The notes: generated by a model not told the origin, from the letters alone. Shown: positions 2,570 through 18,455, counted from the first letter of the stretch. The stretch: DNA of 18,455 nt from a virus (IMGVR_UViG_3300045988_061742:1-18455), one strand, 5' to 3'. Made by a program: numbers and translations.

Positions 2570-3532
2570 ATGTCTCGGAAGCAAAAGCATGTCAAGGCAC
2601 GTCAGGCCGCGCAGGCACGCGCCGCCCGCAACATCAAACAACTAGGCTCTTACTCACACTCGAATCTCGCCAAAACCGCCGACAAACAACTAGTCAACAT
2701 CGCCAAAACCTTAGGCAAAGAGTGGGAGCGTCAGAAGAAACAGGCGGTAGCGGAAGCGAAAGCAACCACCTATCATTCCACCGCCGTGGAGAAACCGACG
2801 AAAAAAGACATCATGTTCGCCCAGCGCACGCCAATCACGGACGCGCAGATCAGCGCGGAACCGGTGGCGAAACGACGTAAACTGCTCAGACAGCAGCAGC
2901 GGAAAATCAATGCGGCACGACGGAAAATCAACGAATGGAACAAATCTCAAGCCATGCCTGCAAAAAGCGTGTACGAGCAACGTGTGGCCGAAATCACCGG
3001 CACCACCGGTGAAGGTTTTGGACGTAACCAGATCATCCCGTCGAAGCTCACCGATTTTCTTCAAATGACGAACGTGCTGTCAGATGAGGCTTTTGTTCGC
3101 TCCCAATTGGAAAGCGGCCACCGTGACGAACTGCTTGAGCAGATGCATGACGCCGCCGAAATACTAGGGTTGCGTACCGAACGGAAAGGCAGACCGTCCA
3201 AAAAGCGGGGAACCGGCAGACAGGCCAAAGACTTGTACGGTGAGCATGAATGGCCGTCATACATGTCACGCGGACGCTACGAAGTGTTCGAGAAGATTCT
3301 GGCAACCACGCTCGGCTCGAAACGGTTGAAACGATTCCGCAGCCTGTCCGCCGCGCAAAAACGCGCGTTCATCGAACAGACCGACGCCCCCCGTATTGTG
3401 TTCGACTGGACGGTATACGACCCGGTTCGGCACGGTTTCACATCGATATTCCGAAACAATGGTGAGGGTTATCAGCGTTCCCGCAAGCAGTTTGACAGGT
3501 GGATGACGGAAGCGGGCGCACTGGAAAAGTAG
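2570..3532 (+). CDS. Putative terminal protein (TP) for protein-primed replication (320 aa, very basic)
   Basis: It sits directly upstream of, and co-oriented with, the protein-primed polymerase, as the TP gene does in phi29-type genomes. It is Lys/Arg-rich (KRRKLLRQQQRKINAARRKINEW). The genome has ITRs, so a TP is required. The assignment is positional; no sequence similarity was recognised by eye. Confidence 0.5.
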   Translation: MSRKQKHVKARQAAQARAARNIKQLGSYSHSNLAKTADKQLVNIAKTLGKEWERQKKQAVAEAKATTYHSTAVEKPTKKDIMFAQRTPITDAQISAEPVAKRRKLLRQQQRKINAARRKINEWNKSQAMPAKSVYEQRVAEITGTTGEGFGRNQIIPSKLTDFLQMTNVLSDEAFVRSQLESGHRDELLEQMHDAAEILGLRTERKGRPSKKRGTGRQAKDLYGEHEWPSYMSRGRYEVFEKILATTLGSKRLKRFRSLSAAQKRAFIEQTDAPRIVFDWTVYDPVRHGFTSIFRNNGEGYQRSRKQFDRWMTEAGALEK

Positions 3533-3560: not shown

Positions 3561-5015
3561 ATGACCAAGCCAGATAACAGAGTGGGACTGTGGTGCGCGG
3601 ATAACGTCATACGCTTTACGGACGGCGCCGTCCTGCGTGACGTCACCGCGCCCAACCGCCTTTTGGCGTCCATTATGTCAGGCGGCAAACTCACCGTCTA
3701 CATGACCGATCCAGAATTACTTGAACCGTTTATCGCACACGTCGTACACTCCCTCCCTCACAACGAACACAACTCCAACCTGAGTTGGGACGCGATCGTC
3801 TCGAAAAAAGGCAAGTTTTTCAGCTTTAGCGTGCGTATCGACCGCGAAAATTCCGCCCGCTTTTTTGACATATCGAATCTTTTACGTGAGAACTGCCGTA
3901 TCACCATGACCGACACGCAATTGCTCAACATCCTGAGGGAATACGATGATCGTGGCTTATGCAAAATAACGGCGGGCGGTGCGAGCATGGAGGCGTTCGC
4001 GTCCGGCGAGTGGAAATGGTATTACGACAAATTCCCACAACTTGAGAACGAAACTAAAAAGTCATTGCATGACGCCTATATCGGTGGTTTCATGCTCGTC
4101 AAAGAAGGGGCGTATGGCAAGGCCATCGACGTTGACTGCAATTCCATGTACCCGTCCATATTGCGAGATGAATGGCTTCCGTGGGGCGAACCGGAACCAT
4201 ACGAAGGCAAATACATCCAAGATGATGACGACATGCCGTTGCATTGTGACGAACTCACGTTCCGCGCGGAATTGAAGCCGGACGGATACCCTTTTCTGCT
4301 CGACAATCGAAGTGTGTATGGACTCAACCGACTCACCTCGACACGCGGTTACGTCACGCGCGTACTCACCGACATCGACCAGGAACTGCTTTATCGGAAT
4401 TATGACGTGAGCGTCTACAGGCATGTCAGGGGGTGGAAATTCAGGCGCTCAAAAGGCTTCTTCCGCTCGTTCGTTGATGAATGGGGGGAACTGAAACAAC
4501 AATCGACCGGCGAGAAAAAGCAGATGGCGAAACTAATCATGAACGCCCTCGTAGGCAAAATGGCGAGTCTGTCAAAAGGCGCCGTCATGCTACCAACCTC
4601 ACAAGATGGCGTCACGTTGGACTGGACTATCGGACAGCGTGAGGAATCGAACCTGAAAACCGACTATCTGCCCGTGCCGGTGTGGGTCAACGCCTATGCC
4701 CGTCGAAAGCTTATGGACGTGTGTCATGCGAACGCCGACCGGCTACTGTATGCGAACACGGACGGTTGTATTTTAAGTGGTTGGGAGCCGGTGAGGTCAT
4801 GTGACATACACCCCACCGAACTTGGAAAGTGGAAAATCGCCGCACGATACGAGAAACTGACCATCCTCGGAATGAACCGTTATCAGGGATGGCGGGATGA
4901 CGGTGAAACGGACGTTTGCATGGCCGGAAACATGTTCACGAAACCTATTCCATACGGACAATTCCGGCATGGAACACAAGTCATGGATGATTATGGCACA
5001 ATGGTCGTGTTATAA
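3561..5015 (+). CDS. Protein-primed family-B DNA polymerase (484 aa, compact and divergent)
   Basis: YxGG-like YIGG (aa 173-176); motif A DCNSMYPS (aa 192-199); motif B KLIMNALVGK (aa 324-333); motif C YANTDG (aa 397-402). Motif A-to-B and B-to-C spacings (~132 and ~77 aa) match phi29 polymerase with its TPR1/TPR2 insertions. An ExoII-like NLSWD lies at aa 73-77. Confidence 0.9.
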   Translation: MTKPDNRVGLWCADNVIRFTDGAVLRDVTAPNRLLASIMSGGKLTVYMTDPELLEPFIAHVVHSLPHNEHNSNLSWDAIVSKKGKFFSFSVRIDRENSARFFDISNLLRENCRITMTDTQLLNILREYDDRGLCKITAGGASMEAFASGEWKWYYDKFPQLENETKKSLHDAYIGGFMLVKEGAYGKAIDVDCNSMYPSILRDEWLPWGEPEPYEGKYIQDDDDMPLHCDELTFRAELKPDGYPFLLDNRSVYGLNRLTSTRGYVTRVLTDIDQELLYRNYDVSVYRHVRGWKFRRSKGFFRSFVDEWGELKQQSTGEKKQMAKLIMNALVGKMASLSKGAVMLPTSQDGVTLDWTIGQREESNLKTDYLPVPVWVNAYARRKLMDVCHANADRLLYANTDGCILSGWEPVRSCDIHPTELGKWKIAARYEKLTILGMNRYQGWRDDGETDVCMAGNMFTKPIPYGQFRHGTQVMDDYGTMVVL

Positions 5016-5016
5016 T
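5008..5016 (+). promoter_or_regulatory. Candidate extended -10 promoter TGtTATAAT overlapping the polymerase stop codon
   Basis: Perfect TG-n-TATAAT box. The predicted start is near 5023, and a strong terminator lies ~140 nt downstream with no credible ORF between. Confidence 0.4.
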
Positions 5017-5022
5017 GTCCAT

Positions 5023-5193
5023 GTCTTCTTGAGCATTGATTTTCGACTGGGAATGACATGGGTCGGATCGCCACGGCTGAGAATGCCGCCGGCTATGGAG
5101 TCGCTACTGTGGCGGTAGCGCCCTACGATTTTCGACTTGATGCTCACATAGGACATTTAGACCTCCGCGTGATTGCGGAGGTCATTTTATTTT
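5023..5193 (+). ncRNA. Candidate ~170-nt structured small RNA (possible pRNA-like packaging RNA); alternatively just the 3' UTR of the early operon
   Basis: A non-coding stretch in an otherwise compact genome, with its own promoter-like box and a terminator. Hand folding gives a 5'/3' closing helix (5021-5039 with 5137-5156), two internal hairpins and a 6-nt loop-bulge complementarity (CGCCAC 5069-5074 / GTGGCG 5109-5114). Details are in the findings. Confidence 0.35.
5160..5193 (+). terminator. Rho-independent terminator ending the early/replication module
   Basis: GACCTCCGC (5160-5168), loop GTGATT, GCGGAGGTC (5175-5183), then ATTTTATTTT. Confidence 0.85.
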
Positions 5194-5202
5194 CCCGTCG
5201 CA

Positions 5203-5211
5203 TGATATAAT
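5203..5211 (+). promoter_or_regulatory. Candidate late promoter, extended -10 TGaTATAAT
   Basis: Perfect TG-n-TATAAT box 10 nt after the terminator T-run and ~39 nt before the first late gene (SD TAAGGAG, ATG 5250). Confidence 0.5.
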
Positions 5212-5249
5212 TTTGAAGGAAAGATTCTACCAACGTAAGGAGAATTTGC

Positions 5250-5537
5250 ATGGCAGACCCAGACAATGACGGAGAGGAGACCACTACTCCGCCGCCGACC
5301 GAAGAGGAACGGCAGACGGAAACCGTGGATGATGAAGTCAGGCCGAAAGAACCGGAACCGGAACCGGAGCCGTCCGAACCGGACATAAGCGCGCGACTTG
5401 ACGGTATCGAAAAGGAATTGGCCGCACTCAAGGCCATGATGGACACGCTCGGTTACAACGACCTCGCACCGTCTGATAACGACAATGACGGCGACGGCGA
5501 TAATGATGGCGAGTCGATCGAAGATCTGTTTGACTAA
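5250..5537 (+). CDS. Putative scaffolding protein (95 aa, extremely acidic)
   Basis: It lies immediately upstream of the major capsid gene, and its size and position match phi29 gp7. It has a predicted helical core (ISARLDGIEKELAALKAMMDTL) flanked by D/E/P-rich tails, and its C-terminal ..SIEDLFD recalls the phi29 gp7 C-terminus ..IEDL... Confidence 0.55.
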   Translation: MADPDNDGEETTTPPPTEEERQTETVDDEVRPKEPEPEPEPSEPDISARLDGIEKELAALKAMMDTLGYNDLAPSDNDNDGDGDNDGESIEDLFD

Positions 5538-5553
5538 AAGAAAGGTATAGACA

Positions 5554-7269
5554 ATGTCCAATGTTCGACCACTTGCAGGTAAAGGTGACGTTGAGATCTT
5601 CAACGCCGTGCGTTCCGCCACCTCACCGCAGTTCCAAGTGCGCATCCCGTCAGCGACTCAAGGCAATATCCGCAACGCGGTGGACACCATGCGCAACTTC
5701 CCATACTTGCGCGACGAGTTCACGGGGGTACTTATCCAGCGTCTTATCGGTCTTTACATCCAACATGCGGACTGGGACGATCCGTTGAAGCTGATTGGCT
5801 CGCCGCGCACTCTCAAGCGCTACGGGTCGACTTACGAACAGGCCGCAGTTGGCCTCGTCAAGGCCCGCACCCGCAATTTCAACAAAGAGTATCTTGGCGA
5901 CGACGTGTATGGCCGCTACTCGCTGCCGACCGCTTCGGCGTTCCATCCCCTTACTTTCGACCATTATTACCCCGTCACTATCCCCGAAGACGCCTTGCTT
6001 ACCGCGTTCGACGGCGAAAGTGGCATGTCGGATTATATCAGCGAGATCATGAACGCACCTATCCTCTCGGATAGGAACGATATGTATTTGATGAAGACGC
6101 AGACTTTTGCGGAGTACGCGCGTAAGGGTGGCTTCTATCGCGTGCATACCCCCGATGTCGGTGCCGCGAACTCAACCGAGGCGGACGCCAAGGGGCTATT
6201 GCGCCTTATTCAGCAGGTGGCGAACGAACTCAAAGCGTCGCCAATGAGCGCCATGCCACGATATAATGCCATGAGTTGGGTGACTCCGTGGCGCGATTCC
6301 GAAGCCATCCTCTTCGCCACACCGCAGGTAATCGCCGCGCTCAACGTTGAAGCCCTCGCCGCCGCATTCAACATTGACAAGGTGAACGTGCCGTATCGTA
6401 TCATTCCGATTCCGGAAGACATGTTTGGCATCGGTGGTGCGGCTGGTAAGGTGCAGGCGGTTCTGACCACGGAAGACTTTTTCTTCTGCTGGGACGAAAT
6501 GCTGGAAACCACGACCAGCCCCGTTAACCCGATCGACGGAACCCGAAACATTTTCTACAAGCACCGCGGCTCCATCACTCCCAATCCATTTGCGAACGCC
6601 GTGCTGTTCTGGACAGGCGAAGGCTCCAACGAGTCCGTGACTCTGCCGGACACGCTCGCCACCTCGAAGCCGGAGTTCACCCTGCGCGTGCGCAAGTATG
6701 GACAGTCCGCCATCACCCCCGAAAATATTTCGCGTGGCGACTTGGTGCAGGTTGAGTCCGTCATTTCGAGCGAGAACAAGGCTGAGGCGTCGTTCCAGCC
6801 GGTTGGCATCGAATACAAGGTCGAGGGCGCCACATCGCAGTTCACGACCATCGATAACGGCGGTGTCCTTCGGTGTGGTTTGGATGAAACCGCCGAAGTG
6901 CTCAAGGTCACGGCTCAGGCAACCTACGTCGACCCAGCCCATCCCGAGATTGACCAGACGGTTTCCGCCGCACTGTCCGTGCCGGTGGTCGGCACTTGGC
7001 TCGGTGGCTGGAAGGTCGGCGCCATCGAGTCCATCGAGATTCGGGGCGAGAAAACCGTTAGTAAAGGCAGTCATATCGCACTTAAGGCGATTGCCACCAA
7101 GACGGACGGCAACACCGCAGACGTGACCAACCTCGCCATGTGGACTGTGGCCGCCAACGCAACCATCACTCCCGACGGCGTACTAACCGGAACCATAGTG
7201 GGCACCGCCAACGTTTCCGCGAAGTTCGCGGGAGCTGCTGGAACGGCAAGAGTCACCGTCATCGCCTGA
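5554..7269 (+). CDS. Major capsid protein, phi29 gp8-like, with C-terminal Ig-like (Big_2-type) domain(s)
   Basis: Several blocks align by eye with phi29 gp8: N-terminal FNAVRS...VRIPSAT; DALLTAFDGESGMSDYISEIMNAPILSDRNDMYLMK against ..LKTAF..[25 protein letters not shown]; and NP..G..N..YKH...I..NPFANAVLF against NPRGLYWNYYYH...SVSRFANAVAF. The last 84 aa (7015-7266: IEIRGEKTVSKGSHIALKAIATKTDGNTADVTNLAMWTV...VLTGT..GTANVSAKFAG..GTARVTV) form a typical Big_2 Ig-like domain. A second beta-rich segment precedes it. Confidence 0.9.
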   Translation: MSNVRPLAGKGDVEIFNAVRSATSPQFQVRIPSATQGNIRNAVDTMRNFPYLRDEFTGVLIQRLIGLYIQHADWDDPLKLIGSPRTLKRYGSTYEQAAVGLVKARTRNFNKEYLGDDVYGRYSLPTASAFHPLTFDHYYPVTIPEDALLTAFDGESGMSDYISEIMNAPILSDRNDMYLMKTQTFAEYARKGGFYRVHTPDVGAANSTEADAKGLLRLIQQVANELKASPMSAMPRYNAMSWVTPWRDSEAILFATPQVIAALNVEALAAAFNIDKVNVPYRIIPIPEDMFGIGGAAGKVQAVLTTEDFFFCWDEMLETTTSPVNPIDGTRNIFYKHRGSITPNPFANAVLFWTGEGSNESVTLPDTLATSKPEFTLRVRKYGQSAITPENISRGDLVQVESVISSENKAEASFQPVGIEYKVEGATSQFTTIDNGGVLRCGLDETAEVLKVTAQATYVDPAHPEIDQTVSAALSVPVVGTWLGGWKVGAIESIEIRGEKTVSKGSHIALKAIATKTDGNTADVTNLAMWTVAANATITPDGVLTGTIVGTANVSAKFAGAAGTARVTVIA

Positions 7270-7289: not shown

Positions 7290-7329
7290 AATAGGTGCGA
7301 GAAGACAATTCTCGCACCTATTGTTTTTT
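7290..7329 (+). terminator. Rho-independent terminator / attenuator directly after the capsid gene
   Basis: AATAGGTGCGAGAA (7290-7303), loop GACAA, TTCTCGCACCTATT (7309-7322), then GTTTTTT. The next gene's SD (AGGAGG) and ATG 7341 follow immediately, so some read-through is required. Confidence 0.8.
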
Positions 7330-7340
7330 AGGAGGACTTT

Positions 7341-9569
7341 ATGAGCGCAAACGATTTGCCAATCAATTTCAGTTACGCGAAATGGACACCAAACACACGG
7401 TTCAAGTTGTGTAACGTGCCTTGGGATATGGGTTACAGGGATATTGTCAAGTGGGACGAGATTGCTCAGAAAGAGTATTTCGAGCGTCTGGACGGTATCG
7501 AATTCTCCAATTGCACCATGGCGAAATACGGCCTTCCGGTACGACTGCCGGTGCCGTTCGCGCAAGCATGTCGGTATAATTATCTGATTGCGACGAACGA
7601 CTACGACTTCGACACCCCCCGTAGTTGGTATTATTTTATCCAGACGTGCGATTATATCAACGCCAACACCACACAGCTCAATATCCAGCTTGACGTGTGG
7701 CAGAGCTTCCAGCACGATATCCAATTGGACAACGCCTATGTGGAAAGGGGTCATGTCGGGATTGCGAACGAAAACGCTTGGAAAGACTGGGGCCGCACCT
7801 ATCTCGACCTACCGGAAGGCCTGGACACCGGCAAGGCAATGGTGGTCACCGGACAGCAGTATAAGACTTTGATCAGCGAAACGAACGGCTACACCACCTT
7901 CGGCGTGATCGTAGTATCCACCACAAAATTGGACACCAACCCCGGCACGGCAGACGCACCGAAAATCACGTGCGCGGACGGCAGCGCTTTCGAAAACCAT
8001 GCGAACGGCACCGCATTATACTATTTTTCGGACGCTCTGGATTTTCTCGCAGTGATGGGGGCGGGCGCGGAATACCCGTGGGTGACACAGGGTATTTGCG
8101 GCATCTACGCCATCCCCCAACTTCCGGAAGCCCTTTTAGAAAAGCAGCAGAAGCCGGGCGTGTTCTTCAATCATATGATTGACTGGCGTGGCGACTGCTA
8201 CCGCCTGAAGGTACGCCATAATGATGCTAAAAGCCGCTACGCCGACATCATCCATATCAAGGACTTCCGCGACAATTTCAAACTCCCCGAACGCTACAAG
8301 TATCTCAAAAAATTCCGCACCGCGCCATACGCCATATTGGAATGCTCGTGCCTCAACGGTACCGTGATCACTTACAATCCCGAGCAGATTCCAAGCGCTG
8401 ACCTGACTATCCGCGAGTCATGGGACTACGCGCCACCGTCTCCGCGACTCAACTTTTATCCGCTCGGATATAACGCCGGAGATGTCAGCGAACAATCCCC
8501 GTTGCCGAACGATTCCGGTTTGCCGATTGATTCCGGTGAAATGCTTGACGCCAGTTTCGGCATCACCGATTTCCCAACCTTCATGACGGTCAACAACGGC
8601 AGCGCCCTCGCCCTCGCCAATTCCGCGTACACGCGCCAATACGCGCAGCAGAGCGCGGATTGGAGTTTTCAGAAAACCCAAATGGGCATCAACAACGCCT
8701 ACTCTCAGGCACAATTAGGCGCGCAGTACGCGAGTGCCCAGAATCGACTTGGCACGTCCAACCGTAATGCCATGAACGCCATCAGCAATCAAAGCGCTCA
8801 GATGGGCGCCGATCTGACGTTGAAAAACCTCGGTTTCAATAACCAAATGTCACAGCTGAACACGATTGGCAGCGGTATGGCGAACGCGGTTGGCTCCGCC
8901 GTAACGGGTAATGTCGGCGGTGTGGCCGGTGCCATCGCAGGCACGGCCATCGGCGCATGGACCAATCAAATGACCTACGATAATAATGTGAGCACGGCTA
9001 ATCAGCAGCTTGCGAACACGCAGACGACCAACAACGCGTCGACTTCACAGGCCAACGCCTACAGCCTTGCGCAAACCAACTTGTCCAACCAACAGACAAT
9101 GCAACTCGCGGATATGAACAGGCAACTTGCACAAGCCACGGCCCAAGGGGACTACGAGAACACCATTGCGGGCATCAACGCGCAGGTGCAACAGACTCAA
9201 ACGATACCCCCTACAACGTCCGGCGCGTTGGGCGGTGACGCGTTCAATCTTGCCAACGGGCTAATTGGCGTGATGGTGCGCTTCCGGCAGATACCACCAG
9301 CCGCCATGCGCTCCATTGGCGAAGTATGGCTAAGATACGGCTATTACGTGCAACGGTTCATGAAGCTGCCGGAAGATCTCATGGCAATGTCCAATTTCAC
9401 GTACTGGAAAGTGCATGAGCTGTACGTGCGTTCGAGCACGTGCCCGGAAGAGTATCGATTGACTGTGAAAGGCATTTTCGAGAGTGGCGTAACCGTCTGG
9501 ACCGACCCCAACAAAATCGGCGTCACGGATTATGCGGACAATACGCCACTATCAGGTATCGCATACTAG
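7341..9569 (+). CDS. Tail knob protein, phi29 gp9-like (742 aa)
   Basis: The N-terminal domain aligns by eye with phi29 gp9: NVPWDMGYRDIVKW / DVPFSNDYKNTRWF; YNYLIATN......RSWYYFIQTCDYINANTTQLNIQLDVWQSF / [45 protein letters not shown]. Its position between the capsid and portal genes matches phi29 synteny. Confidence 0.85.
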   Translation: MSANDLPINFSYAKWTPNTRFKLCNVPWDMGYRDIVKWDEIAQKEYFERLDGIEFSNCTMAKYGLPVRLPVPFAQACRYNYLIATNDYDFDTPRSWYYFIQTCDYINANTTQLNIQLDVWQSFQHDIQLDNAYVERGHVGIANENAWKDWGRTYLDLPEGLDTGKAMVVTGQQYKTLISETNGYTTFGVIVVSTTKLDTNPGTADAPKITCADGSAFENHANGTALYYFSDALDFLAVMGAGAEYPWVTQGICGIYAIPQLPEALLEKQQKPGVFFNHMIDWRGDCYRLKVRHNDAKSRYADIIHIKDFRDNFKLPERYKYLKKFRTAPYAILECSCLNGTVITYNPEQIPSADLTIRESWDYAPPSPRLNFYPLGYNAGDVSEQSPLPNDSGLPIDSGEMLDASFGITDFPTFMTVNNGSALALANSAYTRQYAQQSADWSFQKTQMGINNAYSQAQLGAQYASAQNRLGTSNRNAMNAISNQSAQMGADLTLKNLGFNNQMSQLNTIGSGMANAVGSAVTGNVGGVAGAIAGTAIGAWTNQMTYDNNVSTANQQLANTQTTNNASTSQANAYSLAQTNLSNQQTMQLADMNRQLAQATAQGDYENTIAGINAQVQQTQTIPPTTSGALGGDAFNLANGLIGVMVRFRQIPPAAMRSIGEVWLRYGYYVQRFMKLPEDLMAMSNFTYWKVHELYVRSSTCPEEYRLTVKGIFESGVTVWTDPNKIGVTDYADNTPLSGIAY

Positions 9570-9603: not shown

Positions 9604-9626
9604 CATTTGTATCAAGGACGGTGACA

Positions 9627-10565
9627 ATGGGTAAACGCAATAACGCGAAAAAGGCCGCGCACTGGGATAATCAGAGCGTTTTAGGCTCGATGTGGGGCAA
9701 TCTTAACCTACCTGAAATGCGGCAGTCATTACGAATCAACCAATACATGAAGCTGATTGAAATGTTGGCGGTGAGCCGGTTCAAGTGGATAAATTTGCCC
9801 CCGTACATTGACGAGCGCTATTTGGAACTGACGCTATTCGAGAATGGTTTGGCGCTCTTTTTCCCCGATAAACGCAAGGGCGTCCATCGTTTTATGGTCA
9901 CGTCGGGTAATATCGGCGGTGTCAACAACTATAATAATCCGACATCATTCCAGCCGGTTGCCGCGAATTACTCACACCCGCAAATCGGAAGCAAGGAGTG
10001 CGTGCCGATTTGGGACAACCAACTGCGTTGCACCATGATTGATGTCATGTGGAATTATGCCACGCGGCTCGCCATCGCCGACCGCGCACTGGATGTCAAC
10101 CTCGACAATATCAGCGTGCCGCTGATCATCGCCACGTCTGAAACCAACAAACTCACCGCCGAAAACCTCATGAAGGCACGCGAGGACGGAGACCCATATA
10201 TCTACATGTATGACACCGCGGATATCACGGGCATGTTCCAAACCTTCCCCAACATGACGCCGTTTTTGGCGGATAAGATCATCACCACCAAAACTCAGGT
10301 GTGGAACGAACTCGTCAACTACCTCGGCATCGACAACAGCACGACGGAAAAGAAGGAACGACTACTCGAATCGGAAGTGACGGCGGGAAACAGTCGTACG
10401 AACGTGTTCCGCCTGAGCTACCTGAAAGCACGTCAACAGGCTTGCGACACGATTAACCGGTTGTGGCCGCAAATGGCCGACTCGGGGCATCCTGTCGGCA
10501 TCGAATGGAACGACACCACCAGCGGCGGCCTGCTGGACGTCGACGGAAACAAGGAGGAAGAATAA
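9627..10565 (+). CDS. Portal / upper collar (connector) protein, phi29 gp10-like
   Basis: Clear by-eye similarity to phi29 gp10: FKWINLPPYIDERYLELTLFENG against [23 protein letters not shown], and QVWNELVNYLGIDNSTTEKKERLLESEV against [28 protein letters not shown]. ATG 9627 lies 8 nt after AAGGA. The ORF track starts at GTG 9621, which is an alternative. Confidence 0.92.
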   Translation: MGKRNNAKKAAHWDNQSVLGSMWGNLNLPEMRQSLRINQYMKLIEMLAVSRFKWINLPPYIDERYLELTLFENGLALFFPDKRKGVHRFMVTSGNIGGVNNYNNPTSFQPVAANYSHPQIGSKECVPIWDNQLRCTMIDVMWNYATRLAIADRALDVNLDNISVPLIIATSETNKLTAENLMKAREDGDPYIYMYDTADITGMFQTFPNMTPFLADKIITTKTQVWNELVNYLGIDNSTTEKKERLLESEVTAGNSRTNVFRLSYLKARQQACDTINRLWPQMADSGHPVGIEWNDTTSGGLLDVDGNKEEE

Positions 10566-15805: not shown

Positions 15806-15810
15806 AAGTG

Positions 15811-15819
15811 TGGTATACT
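15811..15819 (+). promoter_or_regulatory. Candidate extended -10 promoter TGgTATACT
   Basis: A TG-n-TATACT box lies 6 nt after the tail-lysin stop codon. The predicted start is near 15826, upstream of terminator 15880-15924. Confidence 0.35.
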
Positions 15820-15879
15820 TAATAGTGGCAGTGGTTGTATGATGACCTTTCCCCCTTGAACGGCTGCCATATGATAGGT

Positions 15880-15924
15880 TAGTGGAGGGCGTGCGAGTCA
15901 TGGCGCACGCCCTCCACTAGTTTT
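15880..15924 (+). terminator. Rho-independent terminator (16-bp stem) between the tail lysin and the packaging ATPase
   Basis: TAGTGGAGGGCGTGCG (15880-15895), loop AGTCATGG, CGCACGCCCTCCACTA (15904-15919), then G+TTTT (15920-15924). The ATPase SD (AGGAGG) follows directly. Confidence 0.8.
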
Positions 15925-15939
15925 AGGAGGGTTGCAAAC

Positions 15940-17007
15940 ATGACATTGCAAACGCTTGACGAGGGCGATTATTACAATTTGCACAATCTGTTGACGCGAA
16001 ACGCCCCGTGGAATTTTGTAATAGGCGCGCGTGGCCTAGGTAAGACGTTCGCCGCGAAACGATACGGCATCAAAGAGTACATCAAGCACGACCGCGAGTT
16101 CATTTATTTGCGCCGTACGGACGTGGAACAGCACAGGAAAGAGACGTTTTTCAAGGATATTCAGGAATTTTTCCCGTCCTACGAATTTCGTGTCAACGGT
16201 GAAAAGGGGCAGATTCATAAGACTTCCTGGGATGAGAAGGATTGGCGGACATGCTGCTATTTTGTGGCCCTCTCTCAGGCTGGCGGACTCAAGTCAGTCG
16301 CCTACCCGAAAGTGCATTTGATTATTTTCGACGAGATTTTCCCCGATAACCTGCGTTTTTTAAGTAATGAGGTAAACTCGTTTTCCGAATTTTACAATAC
16401 GGTGGACAGGTGGCAGGATAGAACAAAAGTTCTATTCCTATCGAACGCCGTTCAAAAGGCCAATCCATATTTCGCCAAATACCGGTTGGACATTGGCGCA
16501 CAGCAAGCCAACCAACAACAATACAAACTCTATTGCGGCGGGTTTATCTGTCTCGAACTAGCAGACTATGGTGGTTTCTCGGCAAAAGTCGCCAAATCAA
16601 GGTTCGGCAAATTCTTGGAGCAATACGATGGCGATTATGCCGACTATGCGATACGTAACAAGTTCCGTGACGAGTCGGACACATTACTGGCGCCTATACC
16701 GTCAAACGGCGAGCTGTCTTACATTTTGGACACTACGGATTACGCGCGGTTTGGGGTGTGGGTTTCCGTGTCCGAACGCGATGGACGTGTTTCACAATAT
16801 GTTTCACGGCGTATTCCAAAAGACAACAATCGCCCCGTCTATACGCTTGACCCGAACCATGTTGACGAAAGAACGTGGTATGTCAAAAAGTCGGATGATG
16901 TTATACGACGGCTCACCACCGGCTACAGACTTGGTAAAATACGATTCGATGATTCCCAAGTCAAAGCGGATTTCGGTCTGATTATCGGAGAACTGCTAGG
17001 CAAATAG
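15940..17007 (+). CDS. DNA encapsidation (packaging) ATPase, phi29 gp16-like
   Basis: WNFVIGARGLGKTFAAKRY aligns with phi29 gp16 LNFVIGARGIGKSYAMKVY (Walker A, aa 29-36). Walker B is HLIIFDE (aa 125-132). LSNAVQKANPYF aligns with LSNAVSVVNPYF, and the C-terminal G.IRFD matches GYLRFD. Confidence 0.95.
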   Translation: MTLQTLDEGDYYNLHNLLTRNAPWNFVIGARGLGKTFAAKRYGIKEYIKHDREFIYLRRTDVEQHRKETFFKDIQEFFPSYEFRVNGEKGQIHKTSWDEKDWRTCCYFVALSQAGGLKSVAYPKVHLIIFDEIFPDNLRFLSNEVNSFSEFYNTVDRWQDRTKVLFLSNAVQKANPYFAKYRLDIGAQQANQQQYKLYCGGFICLELADYGGFSAKVAKSRFGKFLEQYDGDYADYAIRNKFRDESDTLLAPIPSNGELSYILDTTDYARFGVWVSVSERDGRVSQYVSRRIPKDNNRPVYTLDPNHVDERTWYVKKSDDVIRRLTTGYRLGKIRFDDSQVKADFGLIIGELLGK

Positions 17008-18336: not shown

Positions 18337-18455
18337 ATGTGCGGTAAAGTTAGCATTTTATTTTTCCTTCCCCTTGAATCGGATAACTACAATATAACAC
18401 AAACAAAACGGCGACACGCCCGAAAACAAAACAAAACAAAATACTGAAACACAAC
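18337..18455. repeat. Right inverted terminal repeat (ITR), 119 bp
   Basis: Exact reverse complement of 1-119; begins at ATGTGCGGT (18337) and runs to the last base of the window. Confidence 0.97.

Follow-up and report, generated by a model that had tools for sequence, protein, structure and literature searches.

The packaging or prohead RNA (pRNA) of Bacillus phage phi29 is, to our knowledge, the only RNA which is an integral component of a motor for packaging viral DNA. Reviews published up to 2024-2025 describe it as a feature that only phi29 and related phages of Bacillus possess (PMC11476376; PMC12670572), and a 2025 survey based on Infernal added 12 pRNAs, every one of them from Bacillus phages (PMC12670572). 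The architecture of the phi29 molecule including its 3' domain has been described (PMC5066667), and its bulge and its loop have been shown experimentally to pair between molecules (PMC5066667; PMC12670572). In the literature searched we found no report of a pRNA outside the Bacillus phages. Here we analyse a stretch of DNA of 18,455 base pairs (bp), IMGVR_UViG_3300045988_061742, which represents the complete linear genome of a phi29-like phage and is called the window in the following. Its nearest record is the Bifidobacterium podophage BP1 (about 80% identity across 66% of the window), in whose description a pRNA is not mentioned, followed by the Bifidobacterium podophages BD811P1-3 (about 76% identity). 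Between the DNA polymerase gene and the late genes of the window lies an element (5017-5193) which we take, with a probability of about 0.7, to be the gene for the pRNA of a phi29-like phage of gut Bifidobacterium.

A sequence-only reading of the window had proposed at this site a unit of promoter, structured RNA and terminator that could specify a pRNA-like RNA. Conserved motifs, covariation and a match in architecture lend support to this proposal, and every sequence element it listed is found where it had been placed. Relatives were collected by a search of IMG/VR with the capsid protein and a scan with a pattern of 20 nucleotides (nt), which gave 130 loci, and BLAST extraction yielded 85 distinct homologues of 5017-5193 with 73-91% identity. 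Divergent members which had been missed by BLAST were recovered with R1, a covariance model of domain I of the RNA, namely L103 from IMG/VR and L169, L198, L220 and L258 from metagenomes, of which L258 has the same synteny as the window. The metagenome scan itself, done with a 17-nt pattern of the E hairpin, returned mostly chance matches and only the latter four are real. The representative bacterial genomes hold no copy, as all 20 pattern matches in them have unrelated flanks. In the window R1 scores 133.5 bits at 5023-5154, and the genome has this single copy. The comparative counts given below use 86-90 homologues. The alignment A4 is model-based, comprises 90 sequences and leans towards the model; the tree was calculated by neighbour joining from the region with 250-nt flanks, and substitution events were inferred on it by parsimony.

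The region 5017-5193 has a folding energy of -70.5 kcal/mol (z = -4.77), and none of 200 shuffled sequences folds as well. Within it, domain I consists of a long 5'/3' helix with bulges and internal loops (segments A1, A2, GA/UC, UCG/CGA and GGG/CCC, 97-100% paired) which leads into a three-way junction, and of two arms, one made of the C helix, a CE-type bulge and the E hairpin and the other of the D hairpin (Table 1). The conservation of structure and the covariation that were anticipated for the relatives are indeed present. In A4, 97.8% of the pair cells are paired as compared with 32-49% when the 3' partners are slid along the alignment, and double changes occur at 23 of the 43 pairs; the observed values were reached by no shuffle. 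A plain MAFFT alignment gives a similar picture, with 96% of the cells paired versus 33-49% after sliding, 15 pairs with double changes, and again no shuffle equal to it.

The fold drawn by hand in the sequence-only reading was correct in most of its parts. Its outer closing helix is supported as 5023-5027/5150-5154 (A1), where the combinations GUCUU/ARGAC, GUCCU/AGGAC, GUUCU/AGGAC and GUCCU/GGGAU occur. The 10-bp helix proposed next to it (5030-5039/5137-5146) is supported for GAGCAU/AUGCUC (A2), while its inner UUGA/UUGA part is specific to the clade of the window. A further continuation, TCGA/TCGA, had to be given up, as it is confined to the same clade and the family pairs GA/UC and UCG/CGA instead. 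These two segments flank a UUU/UUU internal loop, and compensatory changes from U-A to C-G and from A-U to G-C are found in them in L127, L220 and L103. The 11-nt direct repeat that had been noticed (GATTTTCGACT at 5038-5048 and 5127-5137) exists because its copies are the two strands of one quasi-symmetric helix around this loop. The GGG/CCC helix stands as drawn, with double changes from G-C to A-U in L127 and L220. The first internal hairpin is supported and extends to a C helix of 9 bp plus an E helix of 4 bp, and the second one, our D hairpin, agrees with the homologues without alteration.

Double changes affect seven of the nine pairs of the C helix (92% of the cells paired) and all six pairs of the D helix (99.4%); on the tree, 49 of 50 substitution events inferred for the D helix keep a standard pair. 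The divergent members L103, L220 and L258 rebuild the helices A2, C and D with different sequences. L103, for example, has AAGUGU/AUACUU in A2, a perfect but different 10-bp helix GUGAUGUUGG/CCAACGUCAU in C, and UAUGGG/CCCGUA in D. The minimum free energy (MFE) structure of the window sequence swaps the lower C helix for a hairpin at 5042-5048/5061-5067, which was discarded because it is not conserved.

Column entropy is low throughout domain I (mean 0.38 bit) and lowest in the E hairpin (0.13), compared with 0.79-0.98 at flanking third codon positions. The fold belongs to the plus strand, because on the other one many of the conserved U-G and G-U pairs would turn into A-C mismatches. To judge from these comparisons, the unit is under purifying selection as a plus-strand RNA, and the element is a real, selected RNA gene. 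The loop of the E hairpin (5078-5084) occurs in two main variants, UGAGAAU (62 sequences) and UGAAAAC (24), and the only intermediates are two UGAGAAC sequences, with none of the other kind; the two changes, G to A and U to C, are coupled.

The bulge and the D loop of domain I are complementary to each other: CGCCA at the 3' end of the 7-nt bulge (5069-5073) matches UGGCG in the D loop (5110-5114). This is the sole complementary run of at least 5 nt among all unpaired segments, and a run of this length has a probability of 0.8% in random loops and of 3% in loops matched for composition. The sequence-only reading had counted six pairs here, of which five can form and four are well conserved, while the sixth would open the E helix. 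At least four complementary nucleotides are found in all 25 bulge/loop haplotypes. The first pair is U-G, C-G or U-A, and the second G-C in 70, G-U in 10 and A-U in 7 sequences with no mismatch, A occurring only opposite U. The CC/GG core is nearly invariant, and the fifth pair (A-U) is broken in eight sequences. None of the 17 changes which the tree implies for the first four pairs disrupts the pairing, which reads ACCG/UGGU in L258 and ACCA/UGGU in L220. Bulge and D loop therefore show a co-varying Watson-Crick complementarity of 4-5 bp, in which a single pair is variable on both sides.

When the R1 consensus is set beside the phi29 consensus of the Rfam family RF00044, the two molecules correspond arm by arm (Table 2). 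This numerical match bears on the best of the rival explanations, an independently transcribed structured non-coding RNA which is unrelated to packaging and has a regulatory, decoy or anti-defence role, with bulge and D loop locking the junction as a pseudoknot within a monomer. All the evidence for a real, selected RNA fits such a molecule equally well, it has no detectable homology to known pRNAs, and the bulge, 9 bp up one arm, and the loop, 6 bp up the neighbouring one, could touch within one molecule. However, the agreement with domain I of pRNA would then be a coincidence, and this in a genome with a gp10/gp16 motor; the same topology pairs between molecules in phi29 (PMC5066667; PMC12670572); and for a regulatory RNA no complementary target beyond trivial 5-mers stood out. 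We therefore regard this explanation as rather unlikely.

The extended -10 box which had been seen to overlap the polymerase stop codon (5008-5016) is present, and the promoter is found in 85 of 86 homologues, where TGnTAT(A/G)AT stands 6-7 nt upstream of the G of GUCUU, the first paired base. Transcription is predicted to start at this base (G5023). The terminator (5160-5193), also recognised before, is conserved in all 90 homologues; 4-6 nt separate domain I from its hairpin, which comprises 7-11 bp, folds at -18.6 kcal/mol on average and runs into a U-rich tail; in the window its arms (5160-5168 and 5175-5183) are followed by ATTTTATTTT, and it is the best match of the terminator scan. Its apex GUGAUUG (5168-5175) is kept in all 90 homologues, the most divergent ones included, while the stem covaries. 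Going by this pattern, such a conserved apex is unusual for a plain terminator. At a distance of 45-51 nt past domain I, 86 of 86 homologues have a second TG(A/G)TAT(A/G)AT before the late genes; in the window (5203-5211) it is presumed to be the late promoter for a small open reading frame (ORF) resembling a scaffold protein gene (5250-5537), the capsid gene and later genes. At the level of sequence motifs, both an own promoter and an own terminator are thus conserved and correctly spaced. The motif TGNTATAAT occurs five times in the window genome compared with 0.28 copies expected, an about 18-fold enrichment, and every one of its three plus-strand copies (2491, 5008 and 5203) lies at a gene boundary.

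Two further observations concern these promoters. Two more exact TGATATAAT boxes are located on the minus strand within the capsid gene (6032-6040) and the tail-knob gene (7651-7659), and may be antisense promoters. Furthermore, a 10-nt inverted repeat (4978-4987/5018-5027, 90% complementary) flanks the -10 box of the RNA promoter.

If the element were no separate gene but a structured untranslated region at the 3' end of the early (polymerase) transcript plus its terminator, acting in cis as a stabiliser of the messenger RNA, as an early/late insulator, as an attenuator or in put-like antitermination, its position exactly at the early/late boundary and its strong terminator would be explained. 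Also, the -10 box overlaps the stop codon, so that its conservation could in part be derived from coding, the -35 region is poor, and read-through from upstream must yield the same RNA as well. Nevertheless, a stabiliser or insulator needs the terminator hairpin only and not a 132-nt junction with 23 covarying pairs and with invariant as well as complementary loops, the enriched TGnTATAAT boxes of the plus strand are restricted to gene boundaries, and the late genes have their own conserved promoter past the terminator. In addition, the spacing of 6-7 nt between the box and the first paired nucleotide is fixed, which places the start of the closing helix at the predicted +1, the arrangement known from phi29; this also speaks against the explanation. 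We consider it quite improbable. A plain intrinsic terminator or 3' untranslated region does not fit the data, since the terminator is preceded by a covarying, selected domain of 132 nt with its own promoter.

The absence of any functional element, be it a spacer structured by chance or an unannotated small protein gene, is effectively refuted: although mechanical ORFs overlap the region (5058-5210 on the plus and 5010-5156 on the minus strand) and the reverse strand folds well too (z = -4.55), there are stops in every frame in most relatives, indels of 1-2 nt are common, conservation is far above that of neutral sites, and the compensatory changes are pervasive and strand-specific. In the homologue comparison no ORF is kept across the relatives, ARAGORN found neither transfer RNA (tRNA) nor transfer-messenger RNA genes, and among other Rfam families only sub-threshold, terminator-like matches to isrJ and Leu_leader (E > 1) were obtained for 4900-5300. 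For this reason the region is taken neither for a protein or tRNA gene nor for a known ribozyme or riboswitch, the frames being not conserved and the ARAGORN and Rfam searches without a match.

Several observations weigh against the assignment as a pRNA. The Rfam model RF00044 ('Phage_pRNA'), which has a gathering threshold of 100 bits and scores the phi29 pRNA as positive control with 145.4 bits, has no match at this threshold in the whole window and none at E <= 10 in 4900-5300. Conversely, R1 run with filters off finds nothing in the left end of phi29 at E <= 10, and nothing in BadAztec2 or Av-1. Because neither covariance model detects the other family, a common origin with known pRNAs cannot be demonstrated, and the two may have converged on a shared geometry of portal and ATPase. 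The location differs as well: the phi29 pRNA gene lies at the left genome end, whereas the element described here is situated at the polymerase/late-gene boundary on the same strand as all genes. In the window, the covariation-supported fold is 4.5 kcal/mol above the single-sequence MFE. The two E-loop variants show no association with residues of the polymerase C-terminus, the scaffold-like ORF, the capsid, the tail or the portal N-terminus (best p about 2e-3 among hundreds of tests). With regard to the contact between the loops, its covariation rests mainly on one variable pair and is confounded by clade structure; a mutual-information scan for partners of the loop columns is likewise dominated by clade structure, and the variable pair is not the highest in the alignment. 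RNAalifold prefers two extra pairs of the D stem which use part of the D loop, an alternative with two A-C mismatches and no supporting association. Finally, the contact could be an intramolecular pseudoknot.

Since the model-based tests of membership failed and the architectural ones were all passed, we file the element outside RF00044. On sequence grounds it appears to be a novel pRNA-like variant, which is neither a detectable sequence relative of the phi29 pRNA nor a member of that family. We consider it about as likely as not that the RNA truly corresponds in function to the phi29 pRNA and is probably also related to it by distant descent.

By analogy with phi29, the element might work as follows. 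The RNA would be transcribed from about G5023 to about 5193, and the bulge of one molecule would pair with the D loop of the next one, so that, at the portal vertex of the still empty prohead, a ring of protomers forms. Contacts to the gp10-type connector, with its basic N-terminus, and to the capsid could be made by the junction and the invariant E hairpin, while the distal 5'/3' helix with its invariant U-rich loops would dock the gp16-type ATPase, which is supposed to have no portal-binding or nuclease function of its own. After packaging of the DNA capped by terminal protein the RNA would depart.

Table 1. Location of the RNA unit, its structural parts and the recognised genes in the window
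Feature	Position	Strand	Remarks
DNA polymerase, protein-primed-type family B	3561-5015	+	DNA_pol_B_2 match
Extended -10 box TGTTATAAT	5008-5016	+	overlaps polymerase stop codon 5013-5015
RNA domain I, 132 nt	5023-5154	+	closing helix, three-way junction, C/E arm, D arm
Helix A1 GUCUU/AGGAC	5023-5027/5150-5154	+	98.8% paired in A4
Helix A2 GAGCAU/AUGCUC	5031-5036/5140-5145	+	100% paired; double changes at 3 of 6 pairs
A-helix continuation GA/UC	5038-5039/5132-5133	+	RNAalifold consensus; 97-99% paired
A-helix continuation UCG/CGA	5043-5045/5126-5128	+	RNAalifold consensus; 97-99% paired
GGG/CCC, last helix before three-way junction	5049-5051/5121-5123	+	100% paired; double changes at 2 of 3 pairs
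C helix CAUGG, bulged G5062, UCGG/CCGGCUAUG	5057-5066/5089-5097	+	9 bp
CE-type bulge AUCGCCA	5067-5073	+	7 nt
E hairpin CGGC/GCCG, loop UGAGAAU	5074-5088	+	4-bp stem invariant
D hairpin CGCUAC/GUAGCG, loop UGUGGCG	5102-5107/5115-5120	+	6 bp
5-nt linker, terminator hairpin (5160-5183) and U-rich tail	5155-5193	+	counterpart of pRNA domain II
Second extended -10 box TGATATAAT	5203-5211	+	closes off RNA unit
Small acidic scaffold-like ORF	5250-5537	+	
Capsid protein	5554-7269	+	Phi29_MCP match
Tail knob protein		+	
gp10-type connector	9621-10565	+	Phage_connector (GP10) PF05352, E = 6e-40
Podovirus_Gp16 ATPase, full-length	15940-17007	+	PF05894, E = 1e-44, residues 7-342 of 355

All recognisable genes of the window are carried by the plus strand. 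The first 119 bases recur inverted and identical at the other end (1-119 and 18337-18455), and the genome with these terminal inverted repeats is of the protein-primed type. The homologues of gp10 (portal) and gp16 (ATPase) named by the sequence-only reading were confirmed by PF05352 and PF05894, so that a gp10-type connector and a gp16-type ATPase are encoded in the same phage; in a phi29-like genome with genes of these types a prohead RNA is to be expected. The connector has a basic N-terminus (MGKRNNAKK). In phi29, the N-terminal RKR of gp10 is required for binding of the pRNA. The gap between the polymerase gene and the next ORF, in which the RNA unit lies, measures 234 nt and is the largest internal gap of the window genome; its length is kept in all annotated relatives.

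Some additional features were observed elsewhere in the genome. An ORF of 320 amino acids (2570-3532) has no family match and is placed where the terminal protein is expected; TGCTATAAT at 2491-2499, within the 85-nt gap ahead of this ORF, is probably a third plus-strand promoter. The capsid gene is directly followed by a 14-bp hairpin and GTTTTTT (7290-7322), probably a second intrinsic terminator or an attenuator inside the late operon. Between the CHAP/lysozyme-like gene and the gp16 ATPase gene (15806-15939) there is a second unit of promoter and hairpin (z = -3.95). It has the box TGGTATACT at 15811-15819 (TGCTATAAT in relatives), then about 55 variable nucleotides and a 17-bp hairpin with a U run just ahead of the gp16 ribosome-binding site. 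Among BP1 and BD811P2/3 the stem of this hairpin covaries, and the core of its loop, GUCAUG, is invariant.

Among other actinobacterial phages, the only earlier claim of a pRNA that we found is a GenBank misc_RNA feature 'packaging RNA' in the Actinomyces phage Av-1 (DQ123818.2, 16295-16402). It is not supported by our analysis (z = +0.83, no match to Rfam or R1); ORFs on the minus strand overlap the stretch, which is located at the right end of the genome instead of the polymerase/late-gene boundary. A syntenic structured RNA exists in the honeybee Bifidobacterium phages BadAztec and BadAargau, whose gp16 is 43% identical (in BadAztec2 L138 12706-12883, minus strand, with further copies in L260 and L261 at about 1930-2100). 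Like the RNA of the window it is found between the polymerase gene and a small ORF that precedes the capsid gene. It follows TGCTATA(G/A)T and has a long closing helix (GUGAGCG...CGCUCAC) and a three-way junction, with a 4-bp hairpin and then a GC-rich hairpin. In contrast to the window it is negative with R1 and has no C helix, the E-like hairpin emerging straight from the junction, and no complementarity of bulge and loop was seen; its loops hold the palindromes AGCU and UUAA. Four compensatory double changes distinguish BadAztec from BadAargau2, and as the structure of this type is deduced from only two distinct sequences it is weakly tested. Curtobacterium phage Reje and Microbacterium phage PineapplePizza were rejected as carriers of a counterpart, because their syntenic intervals contain real small ORFs and no clearly structured 160-nt window. 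By eye, hairpins can be seen just upstream of the scaffold-like ORF in both (Reje, L262 about 3962-4075; PineapplePizza, L263 about 4625-4720), and they share a loop motif (GUAGG-CUUGCGU-CCUAC and UGGG-CUUGCAA-CCCA, respectively), the 160-nt windows being not significant. In Reje a 9-bp helix, GAUACCUAG/CUAGGUAUC, encloses the hairpin region.

If the element is a pRNA gene, a packaging motor geared by RNA would not be specific to Bacillus phages and could be ancestral or widespread in phi29-like phages of Bacillota and Actinomycetota; more strongly diverged forms, for instance the BadAztec element, would occupy the same polymerase/late-gene boundary. The debate on the origin of pRNA, as an ancient feature or a Bacillus-specific invention, would be shifted. 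It would also mean that existing covariance models overlook such RNAs, and that there is a second natural three-way-junction RNA which forms rings, unrelated in sequence and GC-rich; RNA nanotechnology would obtain from it a new natural scaffold with three-way junction and kissing loops. Hundreds of phi29-like phages of other hosts share the nuclease-less gp16 ATPase, and how it docks to the portal is now directly testable. The relatives BP1 (on B. pseudocatenulatum) and BD811P1-3 (on B. dentium) are available in culture.

Table 2. Architecture of phi29 pRNA and of the Bifidobacterium phage RNA
Element	phi29 pRNA	Bifidobacterium phage RNA
C helix	5 bp, 1-nt 5' bulge, 4 bp	identical
CE bulge	9 nt	7 nt
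E helix	4 bp	4 bp
E loop	6 nt (UUGAGU)	7 nt (UGAGAAU)
C-to-D joiner	3 nt	4 nt
D helix	6 bp	6 bp
D loop	5 nt	7 nt
D-to-A joiner	0 nt	0 nt (D runs straight into closing helix)
Complementary bulge bases	immediately 5' of E helix	immediately 5' of E helix
Loop-loop core	CC in bulge, GG in loop	CC in bulge, GG in loop
Total length	174 nt	about 170 nt
3' hairpin domain past short linker	yes	yes

Compared with phi29, the Bifidobacterium phage RNA deviates in some details. Its A-to-C joiner has 5 nt and not 0-1 nt, the loops pair over 4-5 bp (CGCCA/UGGCG) instead of 4 bp (AACC/GGUU), of domain II there remains one terminator hairpin with a conserved GUGAUUG apex, and the phylum of the host is Actinomycetota. 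The conservation of this apex recalls that of phi29 domain II, which is unexplained. Common to both phages are an own extended -10 promoter of the type TGnTATAAT and a closing helix from +1 (both by prediction here), a gp10 connector, a gp16 ATPase, a protein-primed DNA polymerase and terminal inverted repeats. In phi29 the pRNA begins 8 nt downstream of promoter A1, whose sequence is TGCTATAAT; here the box stands 6-7 nt before the first paired base.

The pRNAs compiled from other Bacillus phages comprise those of M2/Nf, B103, SF5 and GA1 as well as those of DLc1, BC-5 and Baseball_field from the B. cereus group (PMC12670572). All of them were found with Infernal or BLAST starting from known Bacillus pRNAs (PMC12670572), a route by which the Bifidobacterium family is unreachable. 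The pattern of a CC/GG core has been reported for all Bacillus pRNAs, in which the loops co-vary around this core and homologues of gp10 and gp16 are present (PMC12670572), and the same holds for the Bifidobacterium RNA.

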